Assembly (NCBI GenBank): GCA_963706595.1
Contig: OY970166.1
Span: 3,904,001 to 3,968,000, forward strand
Reading direction: 5' to 3'
Length of the DNA stretch: 64,000 bases
Source: an uncultured cyanobacterium
Lineage (GTDB): Bacteria; Cyanobacteriota; Cyanobacteriia; Cyanobacteriales; Nostocaceae
The position numbers were made by a program, and so were the translations under genes. This document shows, in pieces, positions 339 to 54,066 of this stretch; the first letter of the stretch is position 1, and each line of letters opens with the position of its first letter. Under the pieces are notes generated by a model. It ran no database searches. It was not told the DNA's origin and saw only the letters and a list, made by a program, of their open reading frames with translations.

Positions 339-365
339 CTTGTAGAGACGCGATTTATCGCGTCT
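339..365 (+). repeat. REP (GTAG family) copy 1, left flank of RAYT
   Basis: CTT-GTAG-AGACGCGAT-TT-ATCGCGTCT hairpin, followed by degenerate 11-bp TAAATTCnGG repeats to ~410. Confidence 0.9.
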
Positions 366-905
366 AAATTCCGGTTAAATTCGGGCTAAATTCAAGTAAT
401 TGATCTAATTACCTGATTATTTCTGTAACCGTAAATATACATAAGCAGCAATCACAAATCGGACATTTTTTTTCAAGATCATATATATCTGATCTGGAAA
501 AAAATCCGAATATTTTGGGTTTGCAACTACATCAACATCAGGAAATAATTACATGATTATCAAGTTTTTGGTGTATAAATCCAAAATCTAATCATGAATA
601 ATTATGATCCTCAGCCTAAAAATAACAAACCTAAATATAAAGGTAAATACCGAGTTGATTCAACACGCTTGCCAGCATGGAATTATGCTACTGATGGCGG
701 ATATTTTGTAACAATTTGTACGGCAGGTAAAAAATGCTTTTTCGGTGAGGTGGTGAGGGGTGAAATGCAGTTATCACAAATTGGAGAAGTTGCCCAAAAA
801 TTATGGTGTGAGATTCCTCAACATTTTCTTAATTGTCATATAGATGTATTTTGCATCATGCCTAATCATATTCACGGTATTCTATTAATTAAGCAAATAC
901 AAGAT

Positions 906-980
906 TTAGAAGAAGATTCACAACACTTAGAAGAAGATTCACAACACTCAAAAGAAGATTCACAACACTCAGAAGAAGAC
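906..980 (+). repeat. In-frame 21-bp tandem repeat (~3.5 copies; [L/S][E/K]EDSQH) inside RAYT
   Basis: ttagaagaagattcacaacac x2, tcaaaagaagattcacaacac, tcagaagaagac. Confidence 0.95.
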
Positions 981-1003
981 GCGATGAATCGCGTCTCTAC
1001 AAG
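977..1003 (-). repeat. REP copy 2, inside RAYT coding sequence
   Basis: Reverse complement reads CTTGTAGAGACGCGATTCATCGCGTCT; encodes EDAMNRVSTR on +. Confidence 0.9.
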
Positions 1004-1231
1004 GCGACGGGGTGGGGTTACTGGGGTATTTAACCCGATGTTATCTAAAAATTCTATTTCTAAGATTGTGCGGTGGTATAAAGGACGGTGTAAATTTGAA
1101 ATTAATCAAATATATCAAGGTTTTGGATGGCAAGAAAGGTTCTACGACGAAATAATCCGTAATGAATTTGCTCTTGACAAAATTCAACAATACATTATTA
1201 ATAATCCCATAAATTGGTCAGGCGATCGCCT

Positions 1232-1330
1232 CTTGTAGAGACGCGATTCATCGCGTCTAATTGATTCATCACGTCTAATTGATTCTAATTGATTCATCGC
1301 GTCTAATTGATTCATCGCGTCTAATTGATT
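1232..1330 (+). repeat. REP copy 3 (1232-1258) plus tandem 18-bp AATTGATTCATCGCGTCT units
   Basis: GTAG at 1235-1238 contains the RAYT TAG stop; tandem units run into the recJ stop codon. Confidence 0.9.
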
Positions 1331-3642
1331 CCATTAGCGATCGCCATAATTGTCCCTAAAGGCACTTCGGCAAAATAATTCTGCTGAAACTGTTCTTCGC
1401 TGATGGCGGCTAAAAATCTTTCTAAAGCTGCATCGTTAAAGTCTTCTGAGTTGATGCTGGGATTCCAACTAATTTGCAAATCACGGTCTTGTCTTGTGAC
1501 AGTAAACCCCAAAGATTTTAAAGCTTCGATTCCCCAAAATAAAGTTTGGTCACGAATGCCGAGTTTTTCTAACAGTTGGAAGCGGGTAACTGATTGATTT
1601 GTGCGACTCAAATATTTAGCAATACCAACCAAAGTTAGCCAAATTTCCTGGGGTGGTTGATGATTGGGTTTAGACCAAGCGATCGCTAATTGTTGATTAT
1701 TATATAGACATCGCTTTAGCCATGCACGTAAATCATCCCAGTGAGTCGGACAATCTGCCATCAAAACTGCTGAATGCTGATTTCTCAGTTCTGAATGTTC
1801 TTGATTTCGCCAATCTAATATCATCTGAGTAGAAACACTATTAATCGCGTCTGAATTTTCCACAGAACGCACAGCAATTAATCTAATTTCATAGCGTTTT
1901 TTAAAGGTATTGTAATCCAGTTCAGCAATGCAATCACACTTACCTAGAGGTAATTCATCTTTATAGTGTCCCCACCAAATCCCAGGAAATGCGCTTTTAG
2001 TATACTCATCCCGAATATCAAAATCGGTTTTAATATACTGCACCTTTTTGCCTTTCCAATCCTGCTGATTACGATGCCAAGAATTTTCAAACCAGCAGTT
2101 TTTAATTAACAATTTTGGTACAGGGTTTCCCATCCCACAAGGTTCCAAAAGTTTGAGTTCTAGAAATAATTCTTTACCTAAATCGGCGACAGTTACTGTT
2201 AAATCTACTTGCACAGTTGGCGTGAGAGTTGTTCCACCTAAAGATTGCCGTAACTGCTGATTAATCGCCTCTGTAAATAACGGAATATTCTCCGGTAATA
2301 AACTCAAACCAGCTGCAAAGGGATGTCCGCCAAAGCTATGTAACAAATGTTCTTGCTGTTTGACTAATTGATATAAATCTACCGAATTAACAGAACGGGC
2401 AGAACCACGGGCTAAGAGGGGAGTAGGGGTAGTACCTTGTGTTCGTCCTTCTGTACTCAATAAAACAGTGGGACGGCCTGTTTCTTGGGCTATTTGTCCA
2501 GCGACTAAACCCAATACTCCCGCAGGCCATTGGGGATCTTCTAAGACAATAACGCTGGTGGTTGATAAGTCTAGCCCGGAGAGTTTTTGCGCTACTTGGG
2601 CTTGAACATCTTTTTGTAAAGACTTGCGCCGAGTGTTGGCGAGTTCTGTGACTTCGGCTAGTTGATGACAATGTTTAAGATCCCGGCTAGTTAATAATTC
2701 TACGCAAAAACTAGCATCGCCTTGAATGCGACTGACAGCGTTAATGCGTGGTCCTAGACCAAAGGAAATATCTGTGGGGCGATCGCCATTTTTCTGGCAT
2801 AATTCTAATAATCGCCCTACCCCTGGCCGTCGTCGGGCTGTCGGTGGCTGCTGAAAGTCGGCTTGCAGTCTTTGAATACCTAATTGGGCTAAATACCGAC
2901 AGTCTCCACTTAACTGCACTAAATCGGCAATTAATCCCACTGCAACTAAATCGAATAAATCTGCTAAGGGATTTTGGGGAATATTTGGTAGGGTTAAATA
3001 AAGAGCTTCAATTAACTTAAAAGCTACTGCTACGCCAGAAAGATGAAATAACTGATGTTCACTTGGTAAATAGCGGGGGTTGATAATTGCTGCAACTGGT
3101 GGGCGTTGTTCAGGTAATGTATGGTGGTCTGTAACTATGACATCTATACCTAACTTTTGAGCATAAATAATTTCATTAATATTTGTACTGCCTGTGTCGC
3201 AAGTTACTATTAATTTACAACCTTGTTTTTCTAAATTATCAATTCCTGGATAATTGAGTCCGTGGGATTCTTTAAGGCGATTGGGGATGTAGTAAGTTAA
3301 CTGGGAATTTTGCGTGAAAAATTGTCCTAAACCATCCCATAAAACAGCCGTGGCGGTAATACCGTCTGCGTCAAAGTCTCCCCAAATGGCAATTTTATCA
3401 TTGTTATTTCGTGCTTGTTGCAGTCTTTCCATAGCTAACTGCATTTCTTCGCCAAATTCAAAGGGGCTGGCTGGTTGATACGTTTTATAGTTGGTAAAGG
3501 CTGCTAATTTTTGTTCGTCTTGAATTCCCCTTTGCCATAATAATTGTGCTGCATATAATCCGCTTGATGCTGGTGTATGCTGTTTGACTATTTGGATGAA
3601 CCAGTCTGGTGGTTTTTCGGGTGTTGTTATAATCCACTGCAT
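1321..3642 (-). CDS. recJ: Single-stranded-DNA-specific exonuclease RecJ (cyanobacterial long form)
   Basis: GDFDADG, TDHH, GPRINA, GSARS, GGHPFAAG DHH/DHHA1 motifs. Confidence 0.95.
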   Translation of the reverse strand: MQWIITTPEKPPDWFIQIVKQHTPASSGLYAAQLLWQRGIQDEQKLAAFTNYKTYQPASPFEFGEEMQLAMERLQQARNNNDKIAIWGDFDADGITATAVLWDGLGQFFTQNSQLTYYIPNRLKESHGLNYPGIDNLEKQGCKLIVTCDTGSTNINEIIYAQKLGIDVIVTDHHTLPEQRPPVAAIINPRYLPSEHQLFHLSGVAVAFKLIEALYLTLPNIPQNPLADLFDLVAVGLIADLVQLSGDCRYLAQLGIQRLQADFQQPPTARRRPGVGRLLELCQKNGDRPTDISFGLGPRINAVSRIQGDASFCVELLTSRDLKHCHQLAEVTELANTRRKSLQKDVQAQVAQKLSGLDLSTTSVIVLEDPQWPAGVLGLVAGQIAQETGRPTVLLSTEGRTQGTTPTPLLARGSARSVNSVDLYQLVKQQEHLLHSFGGHPFAAGLSLLPENIPLFTEAINQQLRQSLGGTTLTPTVQVDLTVTVADLGKELFLELKLLEPCGMGNPVPKLLIKNCWFENSWHRNQQDWKGKKVQYIKTDFDIRDEYTKSAFPGIWWGHYKDELPLGKCDCIAELDYNTFKKRYEIRLIAVRSVENSDAINSVSTQMILDWRNQEHSELRNQHSAVLMADCPTHWDDLRAWLKRCLYNNQQLAIAWSKPNHQPPQEIWLTLVGIAKYLSRTNQSVTRFQLLEKLGIRDQTLFWGIEALKSLGFTVTRQDRDLQISWNPSINSEDFNDAALERFLAAISEEQFQQNYFAEVPLGTIMAIANGIN

Positions 3643-3765
3643 GGAGTTTATTAAAGGTTAGGAAGGAGGTTGGTTTTGGATTATCGAACCGCCAAGTCGC
3701 CAAGTGCGCCAAGCGAGGAGAGAAGTTTTTGAGTAATAGTTGCAGTTAGTCATAACTTAGAGTTT

Positions 3766-4396
3766 TTATTGATCATTTATTGGAGTTTCGTTTACTAGGG
3801 GATTGAGAATTATTTCGTTAGCAACTCCTTCAGGTTTACGGGTGCGAATTGCTGGACGGGTTCGCCTGTAACCGGCTCTTTCGGCTTTTTGATGTTCGTA
3901 ATCAATCAGTCTGCCATAATGTTCATGTTTGCTTAAATTCATTGACAGGAAAATATGCTGACGGATATTTCCAAATCCTTTGCGGTTAAAGAATTTGACG
4001 GCTGGATTGTTGGTGGGATCTGTGTCTACTAGCATGAATCGCGCCCCATCTTCAATCATCCGTGCGATCGCTTTATCAACTAATTTATCTGCTACTCCCC
4101 GACGCTGAAATTTCGGGATTCACAGCTAGCCATAATATATAACCGTAAGTCCAGGATGCTTTGGTAATAATGGTTCCTAAAATAAACCCGGCTAATTCTC
4201 CGTCTGTTTCCGCAACTAAACAATATTCTGGGTCTGTATTGTACAGTCCAATTACCTCCCATTCGTCCCAGGTGCGATATAAATAAGGATACAAATCGCT
4301 AGTAAATAGCTGTTCGCCCAAGTGGTAAACGGGTGAAATATCGTCTATCCCTAATTCACGAACATAAATCAAATCAGTTTCATCAAAGCTTTTCAT
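3766..4396 (-). pseudogene. GNAT N-acetyltransferase split by a +1 frameshift at ~4114-4117 (true lesion or sequencing error)
   Basis: Removing one base from AAT CCC G AAA TTT CAG CGT CGG GGA GTA GCA restores NPKFQRRGVADKL (acetyl-CoA motif A) and joins ORFs 4085-4396 and 3766-4059. Confidence 0.85.
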
Positions 4397-4411
4397 ATAA
4401 TTCTCTAGAAT

Positions 4412-5206
4412 TCAGAGAGATACTTCTTGAATATCGGCAAGATTTGGTAAATTCTTTTGATGTTCAGCGCTGGCTTGACTACGTTCACAACGTGTGGCAA
4501 AATGACAATAATTACAATCTTTACTATTTTCCGGTATTTGAGGAAATAGTTGATTTATTTGGTAGTCTTCCAACCAGTTCGTTAATTTATTTAACAGTTG
4601 ATTAAGTTTCTTAGCTGTTTGCTGATGCTGGGTAGAATTGTAATTAAATGTAATATTTTGCGGTTGACCTTCAGATTGGACAAACCAGTAAGTCATAGAA
4701 ATATTTTTGGGCAAATAGGCGGTAGTTTCAGCTAATACATACAAATAAAGACGTGTTTGCCAATTCTGTTCTAATTTGCGTTTATTTTGGGGTTTAGGAT
4801 AAGTTTTCCAGTCAAGAATTTGAGCTTTTTGGCTATCTGCTATGAATAAATCATAAACAACTGTCAACAAATAATCTTGAACTTGCAGGATGCGGTAATG
4901 TTCGCTTTCACGCAAAGTTTGAGAGTCAGTTGGCGTTAAAATTTCTGGTGCTGCATTGGTAAAACCTGACATCCAGCTTTGCAGTTGAGTATCCGCTTCC
5001 AGTAAACTCCCAATTGGTAAACCCATTTCTCGCTGTTGCATCAGCAAGTGAAACTGACTACCCAAAATCTGGTGTTCTTCGTGTTCTGGATTTAAAGGCG
5101 TATTGAGTTGTTCTAAGTAGGTGTGTTGGAATTTACGCGGACAAGTTTCTAGTAAGTTGAGATGTCCTTGAGATAGGCGGAAGAGTTGAGTTGTTTCTGA
5201 CAGCAT
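4412..5206 (-). CDS. PD-(D/E)XK nuclease family protein (RecB/AddB-like, Cys cluster)
   Basis: CPRKF, GSQFH, YD...ILDWKT, QTRLY, CxxCxFxxxC. Confidence 0.85.
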   Translation of the reverse strand: MLSETTQLFRLSQGHLNLLETCPRKFQHTYLEQLNTPLNPEHEEHQILGSQFHLLMQQREMGLPIGSLLEADTQLQSWMSGFTNAAPEILTPTDSQTLRESEHYRILQVQDYLLTVVYDLFIADSQKAQILDWKTYPKPQNKRKLEQNWQTRLYLYVLAETTAYLPKNISMTYWFVQSEGQPQNITFNYNSTQHQQTAKKLNQLLNKLTNWLEDYQINQLFPQIPENSKDCNYCHFATRCERSQASAEHQKNLPNLADIQEVSL

Positions 5207-5359
5207 TGTTTTATTTTAGAAGCGATCGCTCTCCTCTAGTTTAAAGTCCAAAAATTAAGCGTCTGCTTTTTGCAAGGCTACCTGAATCAAAAAAATAAAA
5301 GGTGGAAGGATGAATTTTGCCTTTTCTTTCATCCCTCTACCTTTTTATGTACCTGATGC

Positions 5360-5563
5360 TTATTTAATGTTAGCCCGTGCGTCCCTGACTGCGGCAAAGA
5401 AAAAGAATCCGGTGAGGGGAATGCTCAATCCGAGGATAATTGCAGTTACCTGAACGCCCAAATCTGGTTGTCCAGAAGTAAGTTCAAACACTGAACCGAC
5501 GGCGGCGATCGCTGTTACGCAAGAACCACCCAGAAATAAACCGCTTTTTGGAGTTAAATACAC
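5360..5563 (-). CDS. Small two-TM membrane protein downstream of def
   Basis: 67 aa, two hydrophobic segments, 10 nt after def stop. Confidence 0.75.
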   Translation of the reverse strand: MYLTPKSGLFLGGSCVTAIAAVGSVFELTSGQPDLGVQVTAIILGLSIPLTGFFFFAAVRDARANIK

Positions 5564-5573
5564 TATATGTCCC

Positions 5574-6137
5574 CTATGCTACTGGTTTCACGGCTTGATA
5601 CGAGAAGCCATTTTTAGATAACTCCTGAGCCAAAGTCAAGGAATTATCCACACGATCTACAAATACCACGCCTTTGAGGTGATCCATTTCGTGTTGAATG
5701 CAGCGTGAGAGTAAGTCTGTAGCTTTGAGGGTTTTGGGACGACCGTATTCATCTTTATAAGCAATTTCCACGGCTTCGGGACGCTTTACGTCTAAATAAA
5801 CGTTAGGAATGCTTAAACACCCTTCTTGGGCAACGCAGACTTCTTTGCTCATCTGTTTAATGGTGGGGTTAATCAATACCAGTGGCGGATGATCTGGGTT
5901 ATCTGGTTCACAATCGATGACAATCAGTTGTTTATGAATTCCCACTTGAGGTGCAGCTAAACCAATGCCATCGCTACTGTACATAGTTTGCAGCATTTCG
6001 CGCACCAATTGACGAATTTCATCGTCTATTTTAGTAATCCGCTTGGCATCTTGACGCAGCACGCGATCGCCTAGATAGTGAAGTGTCAAGGGCGGATTTT
6101 TTAACTTTTTTTTCTCGACAGCAATTTCAGAGGGCAT
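5574..6137 (-). CDS. def: Peptide deformylase
   Basis: GIGLAAPQVG, EGCLS, QHEMDHL. Confidence 0.97.
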   Translation of the reverse strand: MPSEIAVEKKKLKNPPLTLHYLGDRVLRQDAKRITKIDDEIRQLVREMLQTMYSSDGIGLAAPQVGIHKQLIVIDCEPDNPDHPPLVLINPTIKQMSKEVCVAQEGCLSIPNVYLDVKRPEAVEIAYKDEYGRPKTLKATDLLSRCIQHEMDHLKGVVFVDRVDNSLTLAQELSKNGFSYQAVKPVA

Positions 6138-6267
6138 GATGATCAATGACTAAGTTGTGAAAATTCCTACTATCTCAATTCTATCAATCTCCCATAACCC
6201 CCTGTTGAGATGCAAAAATTCACCTGAAATAAAGATGATCAACGCAATTTAGATTTTGGGGTGCTGT

Positions 6268-7170
6268 GTGTTTAAATTTCTGACAAAACTTGACTATTTG
6301 CTCAAAGAGACTTTTCTCGGTTTACTGCGGGGCGGTTGGATGAATTGGGCGGCTATCAGTACCGTTACAGTGTTATTATTTTTATTTGGCTTGAGTCTGC
6401 AAACTTCTTGGCAAGTTGAAAAACTCCTGAATCAGTTCGGTAGCCAGTTAGAAGTTTCAGTTTATCTCGATCCAGAGACAGCAGCCGGCAGCATTGAGCC
6501 ATTTATCGCCCAAATGTCGGATGTAGTAGGGATGGAAACTATTACTAAAGAACAAGCTTGGACGAAGTTAGTCCAGGAATTAGGCATTTCCAATATTGAC
6601 GGGGCTACCCAAGAGTTAGGGGATAATCCTCTGGTGGATGAGATTAAGGTAAAAGCTCGGAATTCTGAAGCTGTCCCCAATTTAGCCACGGAACTGGCGA
6701 AGTTACGGGGCGTGGAAACTGTGCAGTATATAGATGAAGCAGTTAAACGCATTGCCCAGTTGCACCGGGGTTTAAACTGGATTACTTTGACAATTACAAT
6801 TATTCTGACTTTAACTGCGATCGCGGTAACTACTACCACTATTCGTCTGATTGTCATGGCGCGACGGCGAGAAATTGAAATTATGCAACTGGTAGGTGCA
6901 ACATCTGCTTGGATCTATCTGCCGTTTATTTTACAGGGAATTACCTTCGGTTTAGTTGGTGGTGCGATCGCTTGGAGTTTCATTTCTTTAATCCAACAGT
7001 TTATCAGCCGGACTTTAGCAAATCAACCAGATTTTATCCAATTTATTACCAACGGTTTGCAACTTAGTTCCGCACAGGTTTTACTATTGCCTTTAATTTT
7101 GTTAAGTTTCGGTGCAGTGGTAGGATTAATGGGCAGCTTGTTTGCTGTGCGGCGGTTTGCGAAGAATTAA
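6268..7170 (+). CDS. ftsX: Cell division permease FtsX
   Basis: 4-TM pattern, ARRREIEIMQLVGAT motif; GTG start at 6268 preferred. Confidence 0.9.
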   Translation: MFKFLTKLDYLLKETFLGLLRGGWMNWAAISTVTVLLFLFGLSLQTSWQVEKLLNQFGSQLEVSVYLDPETAAGSIEPFIAQMSDVVGMETITKEQAWTKLVQELGISNIDGATQELGDNPLVDEIKVKARNSEAVPNLATELAKLRGVETVQYIDEAVKRIAQLHRGLNWITLTITIILTLTAIAVTTTTIRLIVMARRREIEIMQLVGATSAWIYLPFILQGITFGLVGGAIAWSFISLIQQFISRTLANQPDFIQFITNGLQLSSAQVLLLPLILLSFGAVVGLMGSLFAVRRFAKN

Positions 7171-7195
7171 AATTACAGCAATCAGGACGTAATTT

Positions 7196-8005
7196 ATGGC
7201 AACTCAGTGGGAATCTTTACTGCAAAATCTCGGTGAATGGCAAGGTTCATTTACCCGATTCTCACCCCAAGGCGCACTTTTAGAAGATATCAAAAGTGTG
7301 GTTTCTTTAGAAGGGTTGAATAATAACCAGACCATCCGCCAGATTGTCAGCCGCCAAGGACAAGAAGATTTAGTTTTAGAATATAGTTCTGTGGCTAAAA
7401 GTACGCTGTTTTTTGCCAATGGTGCTTTTTCCCAAGGTTCAATTCAGTTAGCACCGTTTACAGAATTTGGGGCGGAACTCGGTTTGATTCATGAAAATCG
7501 CCGCTTACGCCTGGTGCAAATATTTAATAAAACTGGTCAATTAGATAAAATTACTCTAATTCGAGAACATTTAGCTGGGACTGAAGCAGTAGAACGCCCA
7601 TCGTTACAAATAGATGATTTATTGGGAGAATGGCAAGGTGAAGCTGTCACCATATATCCAGATTGGTCTTCGCCAGATAATTACTCTACCAATTTAAAAT
7701 TACAATTAGATGATACTGGACGATTAATTCAAAGTTTAACTTTTGGCGAGCGCACCATTACGTCAACTGGTACTATCCAAGGTTCAATTATTAACTTTGA
7801 TCAAAATCCGCAAAAACAGGTACAAGTATTACTCCTCCCTGATGGTGCGTCTGTCACATCTCCGTTACAGGTGCAGTTGCGTCAACCCTTATTTTTAGAA
7901 GTTGGTTGGTTAATTCAGCCTAACCTGCGCCAACGCATGATTCGCAGCTACAACGATAAAGGCGAATGGGTTAGTTTGACATTAGTTACAGAAGAAAAAG
8001 TTTAG
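7196..8005 (+). CDS. DUF3598 family protein
   Basis: QWESLLQNLGEWQGSFT and second GEWQG repeat. Confidence 0.75.
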   Translation: MATQWESLLQNLGEWQGSFTRFSPQGALLEDIKSVVSLEGLNNNQTIRQIVSRQGQEDLVLEYSSVAKSTLFFANGAFSQGSIQLAPFTEFGAELGLIHENRRLRLVQIFNKTGQLDKITLIREHLAGTEAVERPSLQIDDLLGEWQGEAVTIYPDWSSPDNYSTNLKLQLDDTGRLIQSLTFGERTITSTGTIQGSIINFDQNPQKQVQVLLLPDGASVTSPLQVQLRQPLFLEVGWLIQPNLRQRMIRSYNDKGEWVSLTLVTEEKV

Positions 8006-8062
8006 TCTATACAAAGATGGTAAATCGGGATCACAAATAGAATTGTAAATGATTGAAATAAT

Positions 8063-9013
8063 TCAATTATTTGTTTTCCAATAGCGTTCAATTAATTCAA
8101 AAATTCGATATTTATCTAAAAAATATACAGAACCTATTACCCCTTTAGGGATCTTTTCAACAATTTTTTCACGAGAATTTTCAGTGAAAGAACCACTAAT
8201 TGCAATGATAAAAGTTGAGATATAATGTTTTTCATTAGAGCCAATTTCGTAGAATGGCATTTTGAAGGCATCATCTAATTGACCGATAAGTTCATCGATC
8301 TGTGAATTAACTCTACCACTTATATTTCCAGCTTTAGCTTGCAAACCATAATGTCTATAATTTCCAAAAGAAGTAAGTTCAGAGAATGTAAAATCTTTCC
8401 CATATTCCTTACTACCATGTGTGTAGCGTACAAATGAAAAACTCATTCGTCTTAATAAAGGAAAAATTATCTCTTTAGAAAAAGAATCTTCATTAGTTTC
8501 ATATTCAGATTTCCACTCAATTCCTCTTATAGCAATTTCTGCTGTTTTTAATAACTGCTTTAACTGATTGGCTGCATGGTCAATTGCTGTTTCTATAAAA
8601 TTCTCTGTGGACAAAATGTGACTAAGTGTAATTACCTTCCAATCGTCTTCTACTTCAATGTCAGTAACTTCAAAATTATCAAAGTGTTTAACCTGCTTGT
8701 TGATTGATTCTAATAAATGAGCAAGTCCAAATTGTCCTTCCCAATACTTGTTAGGTTTACGAGATGTGAAATTTAATACAACCCTACTTTTTCTACATGA
8801 AATTTGTAATTCGTTAAAAAAATATGTTCCAAAACCATCTTCACTTTCGATCTCAATTGAAAGGTTTTCTGGAAAGGGAGACGCTACTATTTTTTGCAGG
8901 TCAGTGAGGTCGCATTTTGCAAAGACATAACCATCCTCAACGTCTAAAACGTCGATCTCTTTACCAGAAATGAAAACATGATATTCTTCATCACTTTCTT
9001 TCAGATCAATCAC
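8063..9013 (-). CDS. Putative Mrr-like PD-(D/E)XK restriction endonuclease-domain protein
   Basis: C-terminal E..II.PLL..M.F...HG..EYGKD...GLQAKAG; AT-rich, no HIP1 seen; GTG at 9013 overlaps upstream stop (GTGATTGA). Confidence 0.65.
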   Translation of the reverse strand: MIDLKESDEEYHVFISGKEIDVLDVEDGYVFAKCDLTDLQKIVASPFPENLSIEIESEDGFGTYFFNELQISCRKSRVVLNFTSRKPNKYWEGQFGLAHLLESINKQVKHFDNFEVTDIEVEDDWKVITLSHILSTENFIETAIDHAANQLKQLLKTAEIAIRGIEWKSEYETNEDSFSKEIIFPLLRRMSFSFVRYTHGSKEYGKDFTFSELTSFGNYRHYGLQAKAGNISGRVNSQIDELIGQLDDAFKMPFYEIGSNEKHYISTFIIAISGSFTENSREKIVEKIPKGVIGSVYFLDKYRIFELIERYWKTNN

Positions 9014-9269
9014 TGCTCTTTTCCTTTTGCTGCATTTCTTGAACAAAATCTCCAATGGGGCGAATTTGACCAGCGTTGAGTTCCTCAAAACCTTGCTGAA
9101 TACCGGCAATTGTCTCCAACTGATCAATCAATTGGCGTAGTTTGCTAGAATCAATTTTACTAGGATCAAGAAAGGTAACGAGAACTTGAGTGCAATCGCT
9201 CAAGTCTTGGGGTAACTCAGTAAGTTGAATTTGCCCATTTTGATAAATGCCTTCGATGGTTTTTAGCAT
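9006..9269 (-). CDS. Putative antitoxin (DUF104/AF2212-like N-terminus, ParD-like C-terminus)
   Basis: MLKTIEGIYQNGQIQL; ETIAGIQQGFEELNAG. Confidence 0.6.
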   Translation of the reverse strand: MLKTIEGIYQNGQIQLTELPQDLSDCTQVLVTFLDPSKIDSSKLRQLIDQLETIAGIQQGFEELNAGQIRPIGDFVQEMQQKEKSSD

Positions 9270-9334
9270 GAGTTGTTATGGGGTTGCTAATTCTCTCCAT
9301 TCTAGTTGCTGCAAGAATTTATTCACCAGCGCTG

Positions 9335-9562: not shown

Positions 9563-9574
9563 ACGGTTTTGCTG

Positions 9575-11571: not shown

Positions 11572-12249
11572 TTATTTTCCTTGTCCTGCAACTAATGTTT
11601 TCCCAGCACTGGGGCATAAATCACTTAACTCACAAGCCTCACAGACAGGAGAACGGGCTTTACAAACAGCACGACCGTGATAAATTAACCGAATTGACCA
11701 ATTTTCCCAATCTGGCTGGGGTAACAACTTGATTAAATCTTTCTCAATCCGGATTGGATCAGGAAATTTAGTTAAACCCAAGCGTTGGCTCAAACGCTTC
11801 ACGTGAGTATCTACAGTCACCCCAGCATTAATACCATAAGCATGAGCTAGAACGACATTGCCAGTTTTGCGCGCCACACCTGGAAGCTGCAATAATTGCT
11901 CCATTTTGTTAGGAACAACAGAGTCAAACTCGCTGACGATTTTTCGACAAGCCCCTTGAATATTCTTCGCCTTATTGCGATAAAAACCCGTAGAACGCAC
12001 CAAATTTTCTAACTCTTCTAAATCAGCATTAGCTAAACTAGCCGCATCAGGAAAGCGTGCAAATAAAGCTGGTGTAACTTTATTGACTCGCTCATCTGTA
12101 CACTGGGCGGAGAGAATAGTTGCTACTAGCAGTTGGACTGGGGTTGAATAATTCAAGGAACAAGTTGCATCTGGATAGAGATGCTGCAAACGGGCGAGAA
12201 TTTCTAGCGCCCGTTGCTTTTGGGATGGGGATTTGCGGGTTACACTCAC
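11572..12249 (-). CDS. nth: Endonuclease III
   Basis: LSAQCTD, HhH LPGVARKT, VDTHV, CKARSPVCEAC 4Fe-4S. Confidence 0.97.
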   Translation of the reverse strand: MSVTRKSPSQKQRALEILARLQHLYPDATCSLNYSTPVQLLVATILSAQCTDERVNKVTPALFARFPDAASLANADLEELENLVRSTGFYRNKAKNIQGACRKIVSEFDSVVPNKMEQLLQLPGVARKTGNVVLAHAYGINAGVTVDTHVKRLSQRLGLTKFPDPIRIEKDLIKLLPQPDWENWSIRLIYHGRAVCKARSPVCEACELSDLCPSAGKTLVAGQGK

Positions 12250-12262: not shown

Positions 12263-12336
12263 GTTTCTAGACGCGATGAATCACGGTTTTTAGATGAATC
12301 GCGGTTTCTAGACGCGATGAATCGCGTCTCTACAAG
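12263..12336 (-). repeat. REP copy 4 (12310-12336) with trailing partial tandem copies
   Basis: AGACGCGATGAATCGCGTCTCTACAAG preceded on + by gtttctagacgcgatgaatcacg / gtttttagatgaatcgcg. Confidence 0.9.
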
Positions 12337-19807: not shown

Positions 19808-21745
19808 TTAAAGCATATTTTCGACTTCTGCTGCTAGTTCAGACAAAAAACAACGTTTATGCTCAAGCAACCATTTTGTCAGTTCGTAAGAATGCTTTAA
19901 TTTTTTAAATTTTATTTCTCTTTGGGAAAAATTTGAAAATAGTTGTTGAAGTATTTGAGATCCATGAATTTTATATAAAAAGTCTTCTTCTGAAAATTCT
20001 TTTTCCTGCTTTTTATTCTCTAGCCATTCTTCAACATTTTCACTAGTAATATGTATTTTTAGTGGTTCTCGTCGAGATTGATTTTCTCCATTAAATACGG
20101 CTGATATTGCATCTGGATCAAGTAGATAATTTTCATACATCCGCCGAGACAAAAATTCAACAGGTTTTTGACTTCTCTCTTGCCAAGTTTTTTTATCTTC
20201 TTCTGACTTCTTCTCAGAATCAAACAAAAAGCCAATTGCAGGAGGAAATAAGTGAATTCCGCCACTTAATTTATCATAAATATCAAATATCAGACTAGCT
20301 TTTGTTCCATCAAAGTCACCAGTATGCTGAACTGCGAGGATTTTATTTCCTCTCAACTGTTTATTTAATACTTTCTCAAGTATTAGTGGAAAACACTTTT
20401 CTTCAGTTTCACCTTCTACCCAAAGAATATTATCAGCACCAAAAACATCAGATAACCTGACTCCCAGGTCATATAAAATAGCATTTTGCGATTCTATCTC
20501 TGTTGCATCTATGACCGAAGCTTTTGTTTCACAATTTTCATAGTGCAACTTGATAATATTAGATGGATTAGCTGCTGTAATAATTTCTGGTGAATGAGTA
20601 GCAATAAAATATTGATGCTGGGGAAATGTTTTAATAATTTCTATAAGTTTTCTTGCTGCACCTGGATGTAAAAAAGATTGTGGTTCATCAATAATTAATG
20701 TTCTAGGTTCTTCTGAAGAAACCAGGATATATAAAATTGCTAGGACTTGACCAACTCCACTTCCACAAGAAGATAGAGGAAGTGATAAATCATCTCTATT
20801 AAGTTTAGGATCTAAATTCCAAACCAGTATTTCAACATTATAGTCCTCTTTTTGCACTACGGAAATCCATTGAATTTCAGGTAAAATAATTGAAACTAAT
20901 TCATTAAATTTAACAAACACCCCTGGTTGTTTACCTTGCAATATACAAAGAACTTCAGCAAGGTTAGATATATCTGATTTTAGTTCAGAGTTATTTTCTA
21001 ATTTACAACTTCCTATATTTAGCCTTTCAGCTTTAAATTGGTATATTTTTTGTACAAAAGATTCAAATAACCTAAATCCGATGCTTTCCTTAATATCTGC
21101 TGAATAAGAAATTGGCTCAAAATCATCTGGATAATGGTTTTCAAGAATTAGTTCTTCATTGCTATCATATTTGAGTTTATAAAAACCATACTTACCATCT
21201 TCTCTTGCTCCAAAAGGGGGATATAATTCAAAAGTAGATAATGCTTCTAATGTACTATCTTCTAGTTTAAAGTTATTAAATAACAATAATTTTATCTCTA
21301 AATTCTCATCATTATCCAAAAATTTATCCAATCTATTAAAGGCATCAAATATTAGACTATTTTGCCTCTCCATCACCTCCCTAGCATCTTCATTGTTTGT
21401 AGACATATAATATTCAATGGCAGATTCTTCGTCATCGAATCTTATTCCTGGATTTAGCATTCCAACCGGAGATTGAATATGTTTGAAGAAAGTCCGCAAT
21501 TCCTGTTTTTCAATTGATAAAGAAAACTGGATTTTTGATTCTTCTTTTATTAATGAAGATTTGGTTGGTAAAGTTTTTAAACTTTTATGTGGCTGATTCT
21601 CGAATTTTAGTGTTAGTAATTCCAGTAATGATGTTTTACCTGCATTGTTTCGTCCAATAATTATATTGATACCTGGAGTAAATTCCATTAAACTAGAGTC
21701 AAGATATGACTTGTAATTAAATGCTTGCAGCTTTTTGATAAACAT
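19808..21745 (-). CDS. OLD-family ABC ATPase + TOPRIM nuclease (putative defence)
   Basis: GRNNAGKT, GSG, IIDEPQSFLHP, ATHSP, ILWVEGETE, FLFDSE, RRMYENY; AT-rich, no HIP1 seen. Confidence 0.8.
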   Translation of the reverse strand: MFIKKLQAFNYKSYLDSSLMEFTPGINIIIGRNNAGKTSLLELLTLKFENQPHKSLKTLPTKSSLIKEESKIQFSLSIEKQELRTFFKHIQSPVGMLNPGIRFDDEESAIEYYMSTNNEDAREVMERQNSLIFDAFNRLDKFLDNDENLEIKLLLFNNFKLEDSTLEALSTFELYPPFGAREDGKYGFYKLKYDSNEELILENHYPDDFEPISYSADIKESIGFRLFESFVQKIYQFKAERLNIGSCKLENNSELKSDISNLAEVLCILQGKQPGVFVKFNELVSIILPEIQWISVVQKEDYNVEILVWNLDPKLNRDDLSLPLSSCGSGVGQVLAILYILVSSEEPRTLIIDEPQSFLHPGAARKLIEIIKTFPQHQYFIATHSPEIITAANPSNIIKLHYENCETKASVIDATEIESQNAILYDLGVRLSDVFGADNILWVEGETEEKCFPLILEKVLNKQLRGNKILAVQHTGDFDGTKASLIFDIYDKLSGGIHLFPPAIGFLFDSEKKSEEDKKTWQERSQKPVEFLSRRMYENYLLDPDAISAVFNGENQSRREPLKIHITSENVEEWLENKKQEKEFSEEDFLYKIHGSQILQQLFSNFSQREIKFKKLKHSYELTKWLLEHKRCFLSELAAEVENML

Positions 21746-21998: not shown

Positions 21999-22041
21999 CT
22001 TGTAGAGACGCGATTTATCGCGTCTAAATTCATCGCGTCCC
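21999..22041 (+). repeat. REP copy 5 plus duplicated 3' half
   Basis: CTTGTAGAGACGCGATTTATCGCGTCT-AA-ATTCATCGCGTCC. Confidence 0.9.
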
Positions 22042-24550: not shown

Positions 24551-24611
24551 GATGGATGTAGACGCGATATATGGATGTAGATGTAGACGCGATGAATCGC
24601 GTCTCTACAAG
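24551..24611 (-). repeat. REP copy 6 (24585-24611) with trailing partial tandem copies
   Basis: Minus strand: CTTGTAGAGACGCGATTCATCGCGTCT-ACATCT-ACATCCATAT-ATCGCGTCT-ACATCCATC. Confidence 0.9.
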
Positions 24612-31118: not shown

Positions 31119-31119
31119 A

Positions 31120-44347: not shown

Positions 44348-44505
44348 ACATCTTGTACTAGCCGATTAGAAGATTGGGCTACACAAACAAAACTCTCCTA
44401 TGCGGGTTTGAGACCTTTGAGACTCTTGATTTTTCATTAGTCCGCGAAGGCGGACTTTGTTTGTATAGCCGCGATTTCTAATCGCCAGGACTAGGTACAA
44501 GATGT
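44348..44505. mobile_element. Nested foldback MITE-like element
   Basis: ACATCTTGTAC/GTACAAGATGT; CGATTAGAA/TTCTAATCG; GGCTACACAAACAAA/TTTGTTTGTATAGCC. Confidence 0.7.
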
Positions 44506-44523
44506 GAAGAATCTTATTGATTT

Positions 44524-45576
44524 TTACTTAAACAACGAAAGTATTACCCATAGAGCATAAAAGGCAATTGGAATCCAAAGCACCCAATTAGATCGATAAT
44601 TAGCTTTAATGGCGGAATTTGAAATAAAGTGTGGATTTTTTGGCTCTAAAACCAATTGTGGTAAAGGTTGTATGGTATCTGGCTGTATAACTGGATGCAT
44701 AATTGGTTGTAAATCTTTGAGTGGAAAACCCAACTTTTCCCGTTGCTCAACATATAGATGAGCCACCTTCCGAGCCAAATGACGAATCCTGCCAATGTAA
44801 CGAGTTCTCTCCGTCACCGAAATCACACCTCTAGCATCCAGCAGATTAAACGTGTGCGAACACTTCATCACATAATCCAGACTCGGTACAACCAACCCAC
44901 GCTCAGTCAATTGACCAGCTTCCTGCTCATATAAATTAAACAGTGTCAGCAGCAACTCAGGATTCGACCCCTCAAAATTGTAAGTACACTGCTCAATCTC
45001 ACTTTGCAGAAAAACATCACCATAAGTAATAGTGTCCGTCCAATCAATCTTAGTAATAGCTTCCACCTGCTGGAGATACATCACCAGACGCTCCAACCCG
45101 TAAGTAATTTCAATAGATACAGGACGACAATCAATTCCCCCACACTGTTGGAAATAGGTAAATTGAGTAATTTCCATCCCATCTAACCAGACTTCCCAAC
45201 CAGTACCCCAAGCGCCCACCGTCGCATCTTCCCAGTTATCCTCCACAAATCGAACATCATGATCTTCTGGACGAATCCCCAAAACCCTTAAAGAATCCAG
45301 ATAAATATCTTGAATATTATCCGGTGAAGGCTTAATCAAAACTTGGTACTGATAATAATGTTGAAAACGATTCGGATTTTCGCCGTAACGGCCATCAGTA
45401 GGACGACGACATGGTTCAACATAAGCAACAGACCAAGGTTCCGGACCCAACGCCCTTAAAAATGTATGAGGGTTTTTAGTACCCGCCCCCTTCTCAATAT
45501 CGTAAGGCTGGGCAATTAAGCAACCACGTTCACCCCAAAACTGGTGCAATAAACTAATGACAGACTGAAAATTCAC
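44524..45576 (-). CDS. glyQ: Glycine--tRNA ligase alpha subunit with 64-aa C-terminal extension
   Basis: [44 protein letters not shown]; extension after LGFPL. Confidence 0.96.
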
Positions 45577-45689
45577 GCTCTACCCTCCCATAATCAGCAA
45601 AGTGCATAAACCATTGTTGCCTACAACCTAGCACTGTGGGGAGTTTCAGGCGCACAAAAAAATGAATTCAAAAATATTTGAAAAAAGAG

Positions 45690-45718
45690 TTGACAAAGAT
45701 AGGAGCGCTCGCTATATT
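45690..45718 (+). promoter_or_regulatory. rrn sigma70-type promoter
   Basis: TTGACA-N17-TATATT with A-rich UP region; boxA-like GAACCTTGAAAA at 45771. Confidence 0.85.
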
Positions 45719-45891
45719 AGATAAGTGCCTGAGAGACGAGCGCCAAAGAGCGGCGTTTTGAAGACACACCGAACCTTGAAAATATTATAGTTTGAAAGCA
45801 ATTATACAGCAAATATTGCGCGTCAAGTCAATAAAATAACGAGACTAAAGTTAAAAAACAGTAGTCAAGAAAGAGCTAAAACAAACAAACC

Positions 45892-47380
<1,489 letters not shown>

Positions 47381-47501
47381 TAGGGAGACCGAATCCACTC
47401 AAACATCGAAAGCAAATTGCAATTAGATAATGAGTTGGTCATTCCTAGGTCGGTCGCGAATATTTGTTAAGCTTTCAAACTATAGATTTGGTTCGGATAA
47501 T

Positions 47502-47575
<74 letters not shown>

Positions 47576-47580
47576 CCTGA

Positions 47581-47658
47581 AATCAGTTAACAGTCAACAG
47601 TAATCAGTAATCAGTAAAAAGCTGATAACTGGTAACTGATACCTGATAACTGACTGAT
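47581..47658. repeat. ITS V2 hairpin built from inverted heptamer STRRs
   Basis: (t/a)a(a/t)cagt units followed by complementary ctgataa/ctggtaa units. Confidence 0.75.
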
Positions 47659-47731
47659 GGGGGTTTAGCTCAGTTGGTAGAGCGCCTGCTTTGCAAGCAG
47701 GATGTCAGCGGTTCGAGTCCGCTAATCTCCA
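47659..47731 (+). tRNA. tRNA-Ala(TGC)
   Basis: GGGGGTTTAGCTCAG...CTGCTTTGCAAGCAG...CTAATCTCCA. Confidence 0.98.
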
Positions 47732-48050
47732 CCTTGTGTAAAAATCGCAAAAAAATCATATCGTTGATTGTCAGACAAGACAAAAAATAGATATAATAAT
47801 TTTTGTGGTCATTAGCACAGTATGATAAAATAATAGATCGGGGAAGATTCAGCAATTGATTGATAGAACAATCGAACTGCTGGGTAAATATCCAGCCAGA
47901 ACCTTGAAAACTGCATAGTAACGCGAAAAAAAAGCAGGCAGACGGATTAGAGTCCTGATTGCTTCTTGACTAAGTGCTGAGTAAAATCAGTGCAAAGAAC
48001 GAAGTAAACAGAACGAAGAAAAGTTTGCAGAAAAACACCAATGAAAAAGT

Positions 48051-50879
<2,829 letters not shown>

Positions 50880-50955
50880 CAGATCATTGCTTGTGTGAAT
50901 TGCTAATTATTTCGCGTGACTGTGCAGCCTTCAGGGTCTCTGACCCACCATTCTT

Positions 50956-51073
50956 TCCTGGTGTTTATTGCGCGGTGGAACCACACTGATCCCTTCCCGA
51001 ACTCAGAGGTGAAACGCTGCTGCGGCGACGATAGTTTTGGGGTAGCCCTCTGCAAAAATAGCTCGATGCCAGG
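50956..51073 (+). rRNA. rrf: 5S rRNA
   Basis: TCCTGGTG...CCGAACTCAGAGGTGAAAC...GATGCCAGG. Confidence 0.96.
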
Positions 51074-51087
51074 TTTATTTTTTAACG

Positions 51088-51125
51088 AAAACCCCTTAGC
51101 TTTTATCATTGCTAGGGGGTTTTTG
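51088..51125 (+). terminator. rrn terminator
   Basis: AAAACCCCTTAGC...GCTAGGGGGTTTTT. Confidence 0.85.
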
Positions 51126-51372
51126 TTTATGATGTTTTTATTTTGAGCTTTCAATCACTCTGCTGTTGTTAGCTAAACAGTGTAAAATTACACGCTTTAT
51201 GTAGTAAATATTATACTAACTTGAAAAGACATGATTCTGTAGAAACTTTCTCGATAATACTCCAATACTAGAGATATAACGAGAAAAATTACTTCAATAA
51301 TGTTTGCGTTCGGATATTACCGAGAGAAAATGTTATAAAATAAGTCCTTATACAAAAGATAGACAAGTCAGG

Positions 51373-52323
51373 ATTTAGCTTGTTAGTGCGTATGTCACAA
51401 ATTTTAGGTCTATTGAGGATAGTAATAAATTTGAAATTGGGGATCTGACTTGCCTAGTTGGGAAGAACGAAGCAGGTAAAACTGCTATCCTTCAGGCCTT
51501 TTACGGCATTAATCCGTTTGCATCTTTTATTTACGATAGAACTCGTGACTATCCCCGTCGTCACTTTAGTCGTTTTGATGATCGACATACAGATGGTTAC
51601 TCGAAAGTCATCGAAACACATTGGATTCTATCGTCTGCCGATATAAAACTCGTAAGTGACATTTATAGGACAGACGGGCTGAAGGTGGTAATTGATATAG
51701 CTGAAGGCAAAGCTGGAGACAAGCCCCCATTCAACTCTGGAACTATTGTCAACATTCGTATTGAAAACAGCAATCATCGAGTAACTGTCCCACTTTCCGA
51801 ACGAAGTGCTGGCTTTGTATGGTTCTTTTCTTTCTTATCCCAGTTCAAACAACTTAAGAAGACTACGGGTAATGCCATCATACTACTGGATGAGCCAGGA
51901 TTAACTCTACACGGAAAAGCTCAATCTGATTTGCTACGTTACATTGAGGAGAGGCTTCTTCCTGAGCATCAGGTCATTTTCACAACACACTCTCCATTTA
52001 TGGTACCTGCGGAGCGCATGGCAGATGTTCGGATTGTTGAAGATGTAATCAAGTATTAAGGCAGAAAGCCGACCGTACTAGGTACCAAAGTTTCTTCCGA
52101 CGCATTACTTGTTGATAAAGATACGCTATTCCCGCTACAGGCTGCACTTGGATACGAAATCACCCAGTCACTTTTTATCGGTAAAGATACGCTGCTTGTA
52201 GAAGGACCATCAGACATTCTTTATCTTCAAGCATTCTCTACAGCTTTAAAGAATCGCAAACGTGAAGGCTTAGATTCGCGCTGGACGATATGCCCTTCTG
52301 GTGGGATAGATAAAATATCCTGA
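51373..52323 (+). pseudogene. Decayed OLD-family ATPase/TOPRIM gene
   Basis: One frame: ATT TAG CTT in place of a start, NFRSIEDS, LVGKNEAGKT, LLDEPGLTLH, TTHSPFM, TAA at 52057, then LLVEGPSD; cut by IS at 52320. Confidence 0.85.
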
Positions 52324-52708
52324 CGGGGCGACAAACAAGGCTGAAAACAAGACAGTATAAACAATGTAACGATTTATGGTAAAAAAAGATAGGTCAGGGA
52401 TTGTCAATAAGACCTATCTAATGAAAATAATACCTTTATTCTATCAAAAGCACTTAAAAAGTCAATTGAGTCTAGCAGAATACCTGTTTCTCCAAATTTT
52501 GGTGAACATCTTACAGTCAATTAAAAACGTGAATTTAGAAAGGTTAGCGACTGGGATACCTTTGCCAATTAAATTTGAGAGTAGAAGGAGAAGAATACAA
52601 AGATTTCTCTCATTACCAAATCTCACAATTGAAAAAATTTGGTTTCCTATCATTACGGAATGGCTATCAATATACTTCACTAACGAAAAAATAATTTATG
52701 TAGCAATA
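52320..52708 (+). mobile_element. Truncated IS4-family element (left end + transposase N-terminus)
   Basis: End CTGACGGGGCGACAA; ORF with PIKFESRRRRIQRFL..IWFP..YVAI, breaking off at the expected first DDE Asp. Confidence 0.75.
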
Positions 52709-52768
52709 TTTGGCAGTTCTAAAAATGGATCGGCTAGCACAAAGATAAATAATTGTGAAGCGAACAGT

Positions 52769-52855
52769 ATATAACAACCGTATTGGAGCGGACTAGCTAA
52801 AAATTATAATATGGTTTTCAAAGTTGCTATTAGCCGCTCAATACAACCGTTAGCC
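52769..52855 (+). other. Integron attC-like recombination site
   Basis: R'' ATATAAC, L'' GTATTG(G)AGCGG(A)CTA, L' TAGCCGCTCAATAC, R' GTTAGCC; upstream ORF stop TAA inside R''. Confidence 0.7.
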
Positions 52856-52928
52856 TTCAATCTTTCGATAGGGGTGTAGCGAGAGGTGATCTTTGGGTTG
52901 TGATGTCCAAGTGAGCTACAATGCAATC

Positions 52929-53021
52929 GCGATCGCCTGTATTTTGTTCTGGTTGTAGTTTGAAGACGCGTTATGTATCAGCAATGCATACATCGTAAAC
53001 GCTGACTACCAGGGCGATCGC
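52929..53021. repeat. HIP1-bounded hairpin element (SDR5-like)
   Basis: GCGATCGC at both ends; inner pairs GTAGT/ACTAC, GCGTT/AACGC, ATGTAT/ATACAT. Confidence 0.5.
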
Positions 53022-53101
53022 GCATTCACCTAGAGAAAGATACCCTTATGCTGAAAGTTTGTAAGAATTGAAATAATAGTAGATGTTATGGAGATAGTTC
53101 A

Positions 53102-54028
53102 ATGGCAAATGACAGTGTGAGGATTGTTTCTCTGATTCCTGGTGGAACCGAGATTTTAGCCGCCCTGGGATTGACAGATCAAATTGTGGGGCGATCGCAT
53201 GAATGTGACTACCCTCCAGAAATCCAAAATCTTCCAGTGTGTACCAAAGCACGCTTAAGCCCTCGTGACCCTAGCCGCAAAATTAATGATGATGTCAACA
53301 ATTTATTACAATCTGCCTTAAGTATTTATGAAATCAAAACAGATATATTAGAAAAATTACAACCCACCCACATTATTACACAAGACCAGTGTGATGTCTG
53401 TGCAGTCAGCCTTGCAGATGTAGAAAAAGCTGTTGCTAGTCTCGTCCACAGCTCACCTCAGATTATTTCCTTAAAACCTAACCTTCTGCAAGATGTTTGG
53501 AAAGATATTGAGAGAGTAGGTAATATCTTTGGTGTAGACTCAGTTCACCTGTTAGAAAATTTAGCAGCTCGCGTCACCATTTGTCAGAGCAAACTCCAAG
53601 GGCTTTCTGTAACAGAATTACCCACAGTAGCCTGTATTGAGTGGACAGACCCTTTAATGACCGCCGCCAATTGGATTCCCGAACTAGTCAACTTAGCCGG
53701 AGGTCAATCACAGTTTAGTCTTACAGGTCAGCCATCTGCTTGTGTCCCGTGGGAAACATTGTTACAGAGCAATCCAGATATTATCATTTTTATGCCCTGT
53801 GGCTTTGATTTAGATCGGACTCGTCAAGAAGCCAAATTATTCATTCAACGTCCAGATTGGCAAAAACTTCATGCTACCCACAGTGGGAGAGTTTATATTA
53901 CTGATGGTAACGCCTTCTTCAACCGTCCAGGGCCACGACTTGCAGATTCTCTAGAAATTTTGGCAGAAATTTTGCATCCTGAAATTTTTGATTATGGCTA
54001 TAAAGGAACAGGCTGGGAGACTATTTGA
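53102..54028 (+). CDS. Cobalamin/Fe-siderophore-type binding protein (BtuF-like)
   Basis: RIVSLIP..TE, GRSHECDYP, FNRPGPRL. Confidence 0.85.
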   Translation: MANDSVRIVSLIPGGTEILAALGLTDQIVGRSHECDYPPEIQNLPVCTKARLSPRDPSRKINDDVNNLLQSALSIYEIKTDILEKLQPTHIITQDQCDVCAVSLADVEKAVASLVHSSPQIISLKPNLLQDVWKDIERVGNIFGVDSVHLLENLAARVTICQSKLQGLSVTELPTVACIEWTDPLMTAANWIPELVNLAGGQSQFSLTGQPSACVPWETLLQSNPDIIIFMPCGFDLDRTRQEAKLFIQRPDWQKLHATHSGRVYITDGNAFFNRPGPRLADSLEILAEILHPEIFDYGYKGTGWETI

Positions 54029-54039
54029 ACACAGTAATC

Positions 54040-54066
54040 AGACGCGATAAATCGCGTCTCTACAAG
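54040..54066 (-). repeat. REP copy 7
   Basis: Minus strand CTTGTAGAGACGCGATTTATCGCGTCT. Confidence 0.9.

Follow-up and report, generated by a model that had tools for sequence, protein, structure and literature searches.

One-sided tandem arrays of half-REP copies beside the GTAG-tagged hairpins of a RAYT-bearing Nostocaceae genome

Introduction

The closest described relatives of the repetitive extragenic palindromic (REP) system reported here belong to TnpA-REP subclass 2.4 (Quentin et al. 2018, PMC6006769), which equals group 4 of the REP-associated tyrosine transposases (RAYTs; Bertels et al. 2017, 10.1101/119735), occurs in cyanobacteria and Bacteroidota, and is accompanied by long or double-foot GT[AG]G REPs (PMC6006769). 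RAYT activity has been described in vitro only, for groups 2 and 3, with no in-vivo read-out in the extracts of PMC3333891, PMC8266576 and 10.1101/119735, and the role of RAYTs in cells is a long-open question. In this study we analyzed a 64,000-nt stretch (hereafter the window) of the genome of an uncultured Nostocaceae cyanobacterium (GCA_963706595.1, contig OY970166.1, positions 3,904,001 to 3,968,000), which holds a single-copy RAYT gene and seven copies of a GTAG-tagged REP hairpin. One side of these hairpins carries tandem arrays that combine half of the REP with site-specific filler DNA; the feature is real, statistically strong and active in the lineage.

Results

The source genome (G000; other Gnnn codes are compared genomes and Lnnn codes fetched loci) is one contig of 5.57 Mb with 41% GC; coordinates called genomic or prefixed G000:C1 refer to the genome, all others to the window. 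The REP is a 24-base hairpin composed of a GTAG tag, a 9-bp perfect stem and a 2-nt loop, with a step from C to T bounding it on both sides, and 78 exact copies occur genome-wide. Seven lie in the window, compared with 0 in 100 shuffles, all matching exactly at the tag positions named in the original prediction, and CTT precedes the tag at 7/7 of them. We call the flank opposite the tag the distal side and the GTAG flank the tag side. As had been proposed, distal repeats with a unit peculiar to the site were present at 6/7 window REPs, detected either by Tandem Repeats Finder (TRF), which was used to call tandem repeats in the window, or as an extra arm copy, and the REP tagged at 54063 had none. 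The tag side, claimed to be repeat-free, was so at the seven window sites (periodicity 6-7 vs 8-45 on the distal side), although this is not absolute genome-wide, as an array at genomic position 4120428 shows. The proposed unit of REP arm plus adjacent DNA held at four of the seven sites (1235, 12333, 22002 and 24608), with the correction that the filler is usually an imperfect copy of its neighbor; units at sites 342 and 1000 take in only the last 2-3 REP bases.

Genome-wide, 104 oriented core copies were collected, which after removal of two double-tag sites gave 100 single-tag sites (83 GTAG and 17 GTAC copies). A flank periodicity score of at least 14 was reached by 51/100 distal flanks and 11/100 tag flanks, compared with 1.5% of 2000 random flanks, and the tag-side matches were by eye mostly unrelated heptamer repeats or whole-REP copies. 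A copy of the distal arm within 60 nt of a GTAG REP was found on the distal side at 50/83 sites, of which 45 did not hold a whole REP, and at 4/83 on the tag side (1 not whole), relative to 0.7% of 20000 random positions, and extra exact arms numbered 113 distal versus 3 on the tag side. The distal enrichment that the original prediction called for genome-wide was thus borne out both in flanks and in half copies (45/83 vs 1/83). GTAC-tagged REPs had fewer arm copies (4/17 distal, P = 0.03; 0/17 tag side); this variant often sits within heptamer repeats. The exceptional site G000:C1:4120428 bears four tag-side units, which consist of the REP truncated in its distal arm and are absent in G001. 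A bulged REP variant with 7 copies marks another element, of which the copy at 4050830 has a distal tandem repeat, and five G000 sites have an upstream open reading frame (ORF) whose stop codon comes from the REP tag.

Arrays were found in every orientation of neighboring genes by crude ORF calls (18/24, 13/22, 8/19 and 3/5, with 8/13 for REPs within ORFs) and on either strand along the length of the chromosome, for which strand-by-position bins served because GC skew is weak and the origin unplaced; the direction of transcription or replication was therefore rejected as the source of polarity. Unequal hairpin stability was rejected as well, since both REP strands fold with the same predicted energy (-9.0 kcal/mol). 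Arrays were still polar in G016, whose REP is perfectly palindromic (9/32 distal vs 1/32 tag side; the nine include 3 whole-REP copies and 3 at the RAYT gene, and 3 single-tag sites were not fetched), which argues that the tag, known to be read by RAYTs (PMC8266576), sets the side. Among control hairpin families of G000, arrays occurred at 5/73, 1/42, 0/41, 0/33, 1/23, 0/27 and 0/24 copies, and rare GC-rich hairpins gave 2/73 in the comparison where the REP gave 53/91 distal and 4/91 tag side; a family at 12/13 was a fixed internal repeat, and another scored 3/4. Enrichment at palindromes without a cognate RAYT, the contrast named in the original prediction, was accordingly little or none (0-7%) in the remaining hairpin families of this genome. 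Several of these controls are passengers of young carriers resembling miniature inverted-repeat transposable elements (MITEs), and two other GTAG families of G000, being double-foot passengers of larger elements, are weak controls. REP doublets were rare (6/99 neighbor gaps below 300 bp), in agreement with the expectation of singlets, and the REPs do not form the inverted doublets about 20-130 bp apart of REPIN and bacterial interspersed mosaic element (BIME) arrangements (1 inverted pair below 130 bp).

Unit anatomy was read from a first set of 88 arrays among 209 sites and a second, array-enriched set of 159 arrays from 320 sites. A unit of 10-40 nt joins the distal REP arm to a site-specific filler (a half-REP copy). 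In the first set, copies started at REP position 11 in 41/131 distinct cases and at position 12 in 20/131, with fillers of 0-33 nt; position 11 was also the start in 16/37 clean events, whose end point varied, and in 8/11 zero-filler events, some of them not independent. Compared with the DNA after the array, the first two filler positions matched in 50/82 and 61/77 cases (expected about 0.27), and the match dropped to background (0.25-0.34) by position 8. Fillers matched downstream DNA more often than expected (24/68 vs 14.2) and upstream or tag sequence no more often (13/68 vs 16.3); the majority reproduce downstream DNA imperfectly. Among the oldest units of the 159 arrays, 10 were whole REPs, 37 clean duplications, 5 clean apart from a changed first base, and 107 copies with altered or extra bases. 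Microhomology at the 37 clean junctions was 0 bases in 14, 1 in 9, 2 in 5 and at least 4 in 9 (five of these nine being truncated copies), and many junctions bore 1-3 extra bases. Immediate repetition of the three REP-terminal bases was seen at 17/78 sites (1.6% expected by chance). Fold-back synthesis on the upstream or the opposite strand was rejected as a general filler source (16/68 vs 13.6 and 11/68 vs 12.1), as were foreign, CRISPR-like spacers, since fillers match adjacent DNA and recur within arrays, and fill-in by non-homologous end joining, since Ku was not found in G000 (94% complete). A few units show a flipped loop. The first post-REP base was off-template in five clean events (L137, L117, L469, G000:C1:4028055 and 3827416), a position that also differs between the copies of one carrier element.

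REP positions are mostly common within the genus, but arrays are not. We fetched 126 REP sites from relatives, of which 90 mapped to G000; in 62 ortholog pairs, identity of at least 13/15 was retained by the 15 nt on the tag side in 29 and by the 15 nt on the distal side in 10. At genomic position 4028055, G000 has six 15-nt units and G001 and G008 no array, and outgroups are likewise array-free at 164253 and 3745184. Nested layers were seen at 4367555, where G001 has no unit, G006 one distal unit, G008 a second and G000 two more on the proximal side; about five ortholog sets, judged by eye, read as having the newest unit nearest the REP. The G008 site orthologous to 364..393 bears another repeat, and the fillers at 24551..24584 differ in G001 and G008. 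Orthologous sites thus hold different, lineage-specific arrays. The REP also rides in several fixed-flank MITE-like carriers (G070, G014, G095 and G138; L401-L430, L120-L148 and L433-L448); the G014 carrier has an array in 1/16 copies, and another shows at least 10 different arrays in G095/G138, at sites picked for having arrays. At G000:C1:4852800-4852900, G008 (L158) keeps the REP and G000 only units with a tag, a scrambled 5' arm and an intact distal arm. One filled/empty pair (L077 of G001 against G000:C1:2441553) has boundaries compatible with insertion at a step from C to T.

Most arrays of G000 (43/50) lie outside long ORFs. The unit length was a multiple of three in 7/7 arrays inside long ORFs, compared with 12/43 outside, and all seven inside were in frame, as the proposal of peptide insertions implied. 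The array-bearing genes were recF, cobN, an hhoA/htrA protease gene and menE, with three others lacking an NCBIfam match at 1e-25. REP sites also touch DNA repair genes (recJ, 1321-3642; nth, 11572-12249; recF, G000:C1:3826758-3828008).

The RAYT (one tblastn match in the genome) has an intact HUH motif (H92, H94) as NHIH, WQ, and YIINNP (Y200). It scored 27.9 bits against Pfam Y1_Tnp (cut-off 23), reached E = 2.6e-13 with NCBIfam NF047646 but only 50.1 bits, below the cut-off of 80, and had 4er8 as its sole PDB match (E = 1e-4); its closest named relative is a protein of a Nostoc metagenome-assembled genome (MAG; 73%). Together with gene content and the HIP1 octamer, this relative suggests that the genome belongs to a heterocyst-forming cyanobacterium. 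Its motifs agree with the subclass 2.4 set NH[IFV]H, WQ and YIxNNP (Table 1 of PMC6006769), an in-frame REP (977-1003) lies between HUH and Y as in 13 close homologues, and GT[AG]G REPs, found repeatedly across the genome, lie on both flanks of the single-copy gene. From these sequence traits the RAYT appears to fit TnpA-REP subclass 2.4, i.e. Bertels' group 4; an IS200/IS605 insertion sequence was rejected, the transposase gene being single-copy rather than multi-copy. The TAG within the REP tag at 1235 serves as the stop codon of the RAYT gene. The array at 908..979 encodes EEDSQH-type 7-residue repeats in the segment from the HUH motif to the Y motif, and in 11/13 close homologues this loop has extra, mostly repeated residues, differing in most and always distal of the intragenic REP. 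A close homologue is present in 2/11 genomes of the genus, and given this patchiness the RAYT may have been gained or lost as a unit. In G001 (L339) and G006 (L345/L341) the upstream gene and recJ are about 80 bp apart, and the G001 junction has no REP remnant, which suggests that the cassette was gained whole or lost cleanly. In run X1, a single contig (depth 9) connects 362 with 1284, bypassing the RAYT gene; this join of the upstream REP arm to the downstream arm copy is a possible route of RAYT loss via direct repeats.

Within the genus, arrays occurred at 45/83 and 23/38 sites in the RAYT-bearing G000 and G008, and at 8/30 (30 of that genome's 35 sites), 4/12 and 0/7 in members without the gene; all these genomes are kin and not independent. 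REPs at the RAYT gene carried arrays more often (12/26) than REPs elsewhere in the same 13 genomes (58/359), a contrast confounded by age and carriers. In other families, the G013 REP had arrays at 5/11 sites distally and 0/11 on the tag side, and G019 at 5/6 double-foot sites. Two or more half copies were seen across 109 subclass 2.4 loci on 10/114 distal and 4/114 tag sides (6 vs 2 loci), a modest signal; clear arrays lie beside the RAYT of a Bacteroides MAG (L298), and others at double-foot REPs beside RAYTs of Chloroflexia, Algoriphagus, Bacteroidales and Gemmatimonadales records.

The window features are collected in Table 1. Outside these, 19808-21745 encodes a 645-aa AAA/SMC-like ATPase with weak matches to the defence ATPases MAD3 and PtuA, below cut-offs.

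Table 1. REPs, arrays and the RAYT gene in the window.
Feature	Position	Strand	Details
REP upstream of RAYT	339..365	+	CTT + GTAG tag + 9-bp stem, 2-nt loop
11-bp tandem repeat, distal of REP 339..365	364..393	+	TRF period 11, 2.7 copies
RAYT / TnpA-REP gene	594..1238	+	214 aa, single-copy
21-bp array distal to intragenic REP	908..979	-	TRF period 21, 3.4 copies; in frame
Intragenic REP, non-coding strand of RAYT	977..1003	-	encodes DAMNRVST
REP at RAYT 3' end	1232..1258	+	oriented like upstream REP
Array of 18-bp units (4-nt filler + REP positions 11-24)	1259..1331	+	three arm copies; TRF 1245-1331, period 18; extends to recJ stop
Distal array, one full + one truncated arm copy	12263..12309	-	TRF 12263-12326, period 18/23
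REP between rseP and nth	12310..12336	-	exact match
REP	21999..22025	+	exact match, CTT-preceded
Single 15-nt filler + arm copy	22026..22040	+	TRF silent; related copies in G001, G008
Distal array, ACATC-based filler + one arm copy	24551..24584	-	TRF silent
REP upstream of yidC	24585..24611	-	exact match
REP without array, between convergent genes	54040..54066	-	exact match

Discussion

The arrays have a fixed polarity, depend on the tag, show a unit anatomy of half-REP plus filler, turn over by lineage and survive within genes in frame. At a rough probability of 0.5, we propose that a subclass 2.4 RAYT writes them by nicking, extending and rejoining the GTAG-tagged strand. The tagged single-stranded hairpin would be bound by the RAYT and nicked near the top of the stem, mostly before REP position 11, with Tyr200 holding the 5' end covalently; starting at the free 3'-OH, synthesis by a host polymerase would run through the distal arm and 0-20 nt of flank, with displacement and imperfect copying of the old strand, and attack of the newly made 3'-OH on the phosphotyrosine would leave one unit of distal arm plus filler inserted beside the REP. 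Repeated events would add unit types, and slippage between direct repeats would probably multiply them. Nick-extend-rejoin chemistry has been proposed for whole-BIME amplification (PMC3333891), and a nick near the loop of the tagged strand, entered into that scheme, would give the observed unit geometry; in vitro, TnpA-REP also transfers its phosphotyrosine-linked strand to an added 3'-OH (PMC8266576). The fixed start in the hairpin, variable end, scarce microhomology and untidy junctions favor such a covalent join over re-priming. That subclass 2.4 RAYTs in general may be site-directed, strand-polar writers of tandem repeats at about 100 chromosomal addresses, newest unit first, is a more tentative proposal, which we would put somewhat short of even odds.

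Several results weigh against the RAYT-written scheme. The 107/159 oldest units with altered or extra bases are unlike the work of a faithful polymerase, and characterized RAYTs cut outside the bound stem, between C and T or C and A, and not inside it between C and G (PMC8266576), so the predicted site would be a new one. A general test for placement of the newest unit beside the REP did not reach significance (19:12, P = 0.28). Across the family (where variable-gap matches count two arrays twice), exact arrays were carried by 72/385 REPs (19%) across the 13 genomes that have a close RAYT homologue, and by 30/164 (18%) across the 16 in which none was detected; the former range from 0/12 to 18/36, with 0/6 in G024, 0/12 in G101, 1/58 in G070 and 1/21 in G014 despite intact-looking homologues, and another REP family, one of the two weak GTAG controls above, had 0/15 arrays in G001 even with two RAYTs beside it. 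Many REPs of G024, G101, G070 and G014 sit in young carrier elements, and 19/30 arrays of the genomes without a close homologue come from G052, leaving 11/107 without it. G052 has 529 REP-family matches and arrays at 19/57 sites, and the one RAYT found there (41%) has a different REP on its flanks; a contig may be missing, or an enzyme may cross-react. Of the predicted RAYT-driven, polarised amplification, polarity and tag dependence were recovered, but a close homologue does not predict arrays across the family. On balance, RAYT is likely to cause the arrays.

The main rival, which we consider unlikely, dispenses with the nick: the RAYT or another GTAG-reading protein would hold the hairpin as a roadblock, and a replicating polymerase that stalls in it near position 11 would slip back and recopy the distal flank. 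The same polarity, a modal stall point and proximal new copies would be expected from it, the REP-terminal three-base repeats (17/78 vs 1.6%) resemble primer slips at the hairpin foot, arrays are plentiful in G052, where no close RAYT homologue was found, and at least one base of microhomology is present at 23/37 clean junctions (a few with 4-7); the 14/37 without any, and the many with 1-3 extra bases, are nevertheless hard to reconcile with re-priming by a replicative polymerase. Head-to-tail duplication of whole REPs, by RAYT strand transfer between C|T sites or unequal crossing-over, followed by loss or erosion of the second copy's tag and 5' arm, seems less probable still as a general account. 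It is suggested by the 10/159 oldest units that are whole REP copies, about 7 fillers that retain upstream flank and tag, the L169 site, where G000 has a whole copy and G008 a half copy, and the steps from C to T on both sides of the REP, but most fillers lack upstream or tag sequence (13/68 vs 16.3) and match downstream DNA instead (24/68 vs 14.2), zero-filler units are not simply explained, and symmetric erosion would leave equal tag-side halves. Whole-REP duplication with later erosion accounts for a minority of units.

Plain hairpin slippage without a dedicated protein, its bias arising from sequence context or selection, strikes us as improbable: a strand-symmetric palindrome gives arrays at 45:1 in all gene orientations while other abundant hairpins reach 0-7%, even though RAYT presence is not predictive across the family, some control hairpins are young passengers, and two existing arms can multiply by slippage. 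Equally doubtful is that the arrays are a selected generator of diversity (contingency loci acting on proteins or transcript ends) and not scars left as by-products. In-frame peptide repeats are kept in RecF, CobN, an HtrA-like protease, MenE and the RAYT loop, but 43/50 G000 arrays lie outside long ORFs, purging of frameshifts explains the conserved frame, and the target genes have no common function and orthologues without inserts.

The arrays offer a countable, strand-specific product with a predicted breakpoint, so a reporter with one gene and one hairpin can test RAYT catalysis directly, and they present a concrete route from unique DNA to tandem and peptide repeats in bacteria. If RAYT-written, they would give RAYT catalysis its first in-vivo footprint, would mean that one small HUH enzyme makes minisatellites and peptide repeats from non-repetitive DNA, and could make the RAYT system a programmable tool for local duplication and diversification.

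Nostoc punctiforme reportedly carries small dispersed repeats (SDRs), described by Elhai and colleagues in 2008 as mobile Nostocales repeats of 21-27 nt, often among heptamer tandem repeats, and the window REP may be one of these SDR elements. CRISPR arrays likewise grow on one side from a fixed anchor and show layered history at some sites, but here the fillers come from the adjacent chromosome, units are repeated, and there are no foreign spacers.

In the REP/RAYT literature, with Elhai et al. 2008 and supplements outside its scope, no description of one-sided half-REP arrays was found: extracts of PMC3733652, PMC3116915, PMC6006769, PMC8266576, PMC3333891, 10.1101/119735 and 10.1101/2021.07.10.451892 report intragenic REPs and clusters of whole REPs or doublets and no half-REP arrays, those of 10.1101/2021.07.10.451892, PMC3184786 and PMC2884548 hold nothing specific on arrays, and the word "tandem" is absent from the main texts of PMC6006769 and 10.1101/119735 (supplements, including Fig. 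S10 of PMC6006769, lying outside this scope). The study 10.1101/2020.03.09.984088 concerns subclass 2.1, and a causal claim is withdrawn there. With subclass 2.4 the window system shares NH[IFV]H, WQ, YIxNNP and the in-frame REP between HUH and Y (PMC6006769). E. coli BIME-2 also undergoes local tandem amplification with strain-variable copy number (Ton-Hoang et al. 2012, PMC3333891), but what it amplifies are whole REP-iREP doublets, which have linkers common to the family and cuts between C and T, whereas in the window system the REPs are singlets, the half-REP units measure 10-40 nt, each site has a filler of its own and the breakpoints fall within the hairpin. GTAG palindromes beside a single RAYT, with intragenic copies, are common to the window REP, the Pseudomonas REPIN systems (Bertels and Rainey 2011, PMC3116915) and the cyanobacterial GTAG families 12, 15 and 16 (Di Nocera et al. 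2013, PMC3733652); the clusters in these systems reiterate whole REPs or doublets with flanking DNA, unlike half-REP arrays. Collectively, the enzyme family is a known one, and the window system is a new variant in its outcome, namely one-sided half-REP arrays, site-specific fillers and peptide repeats.

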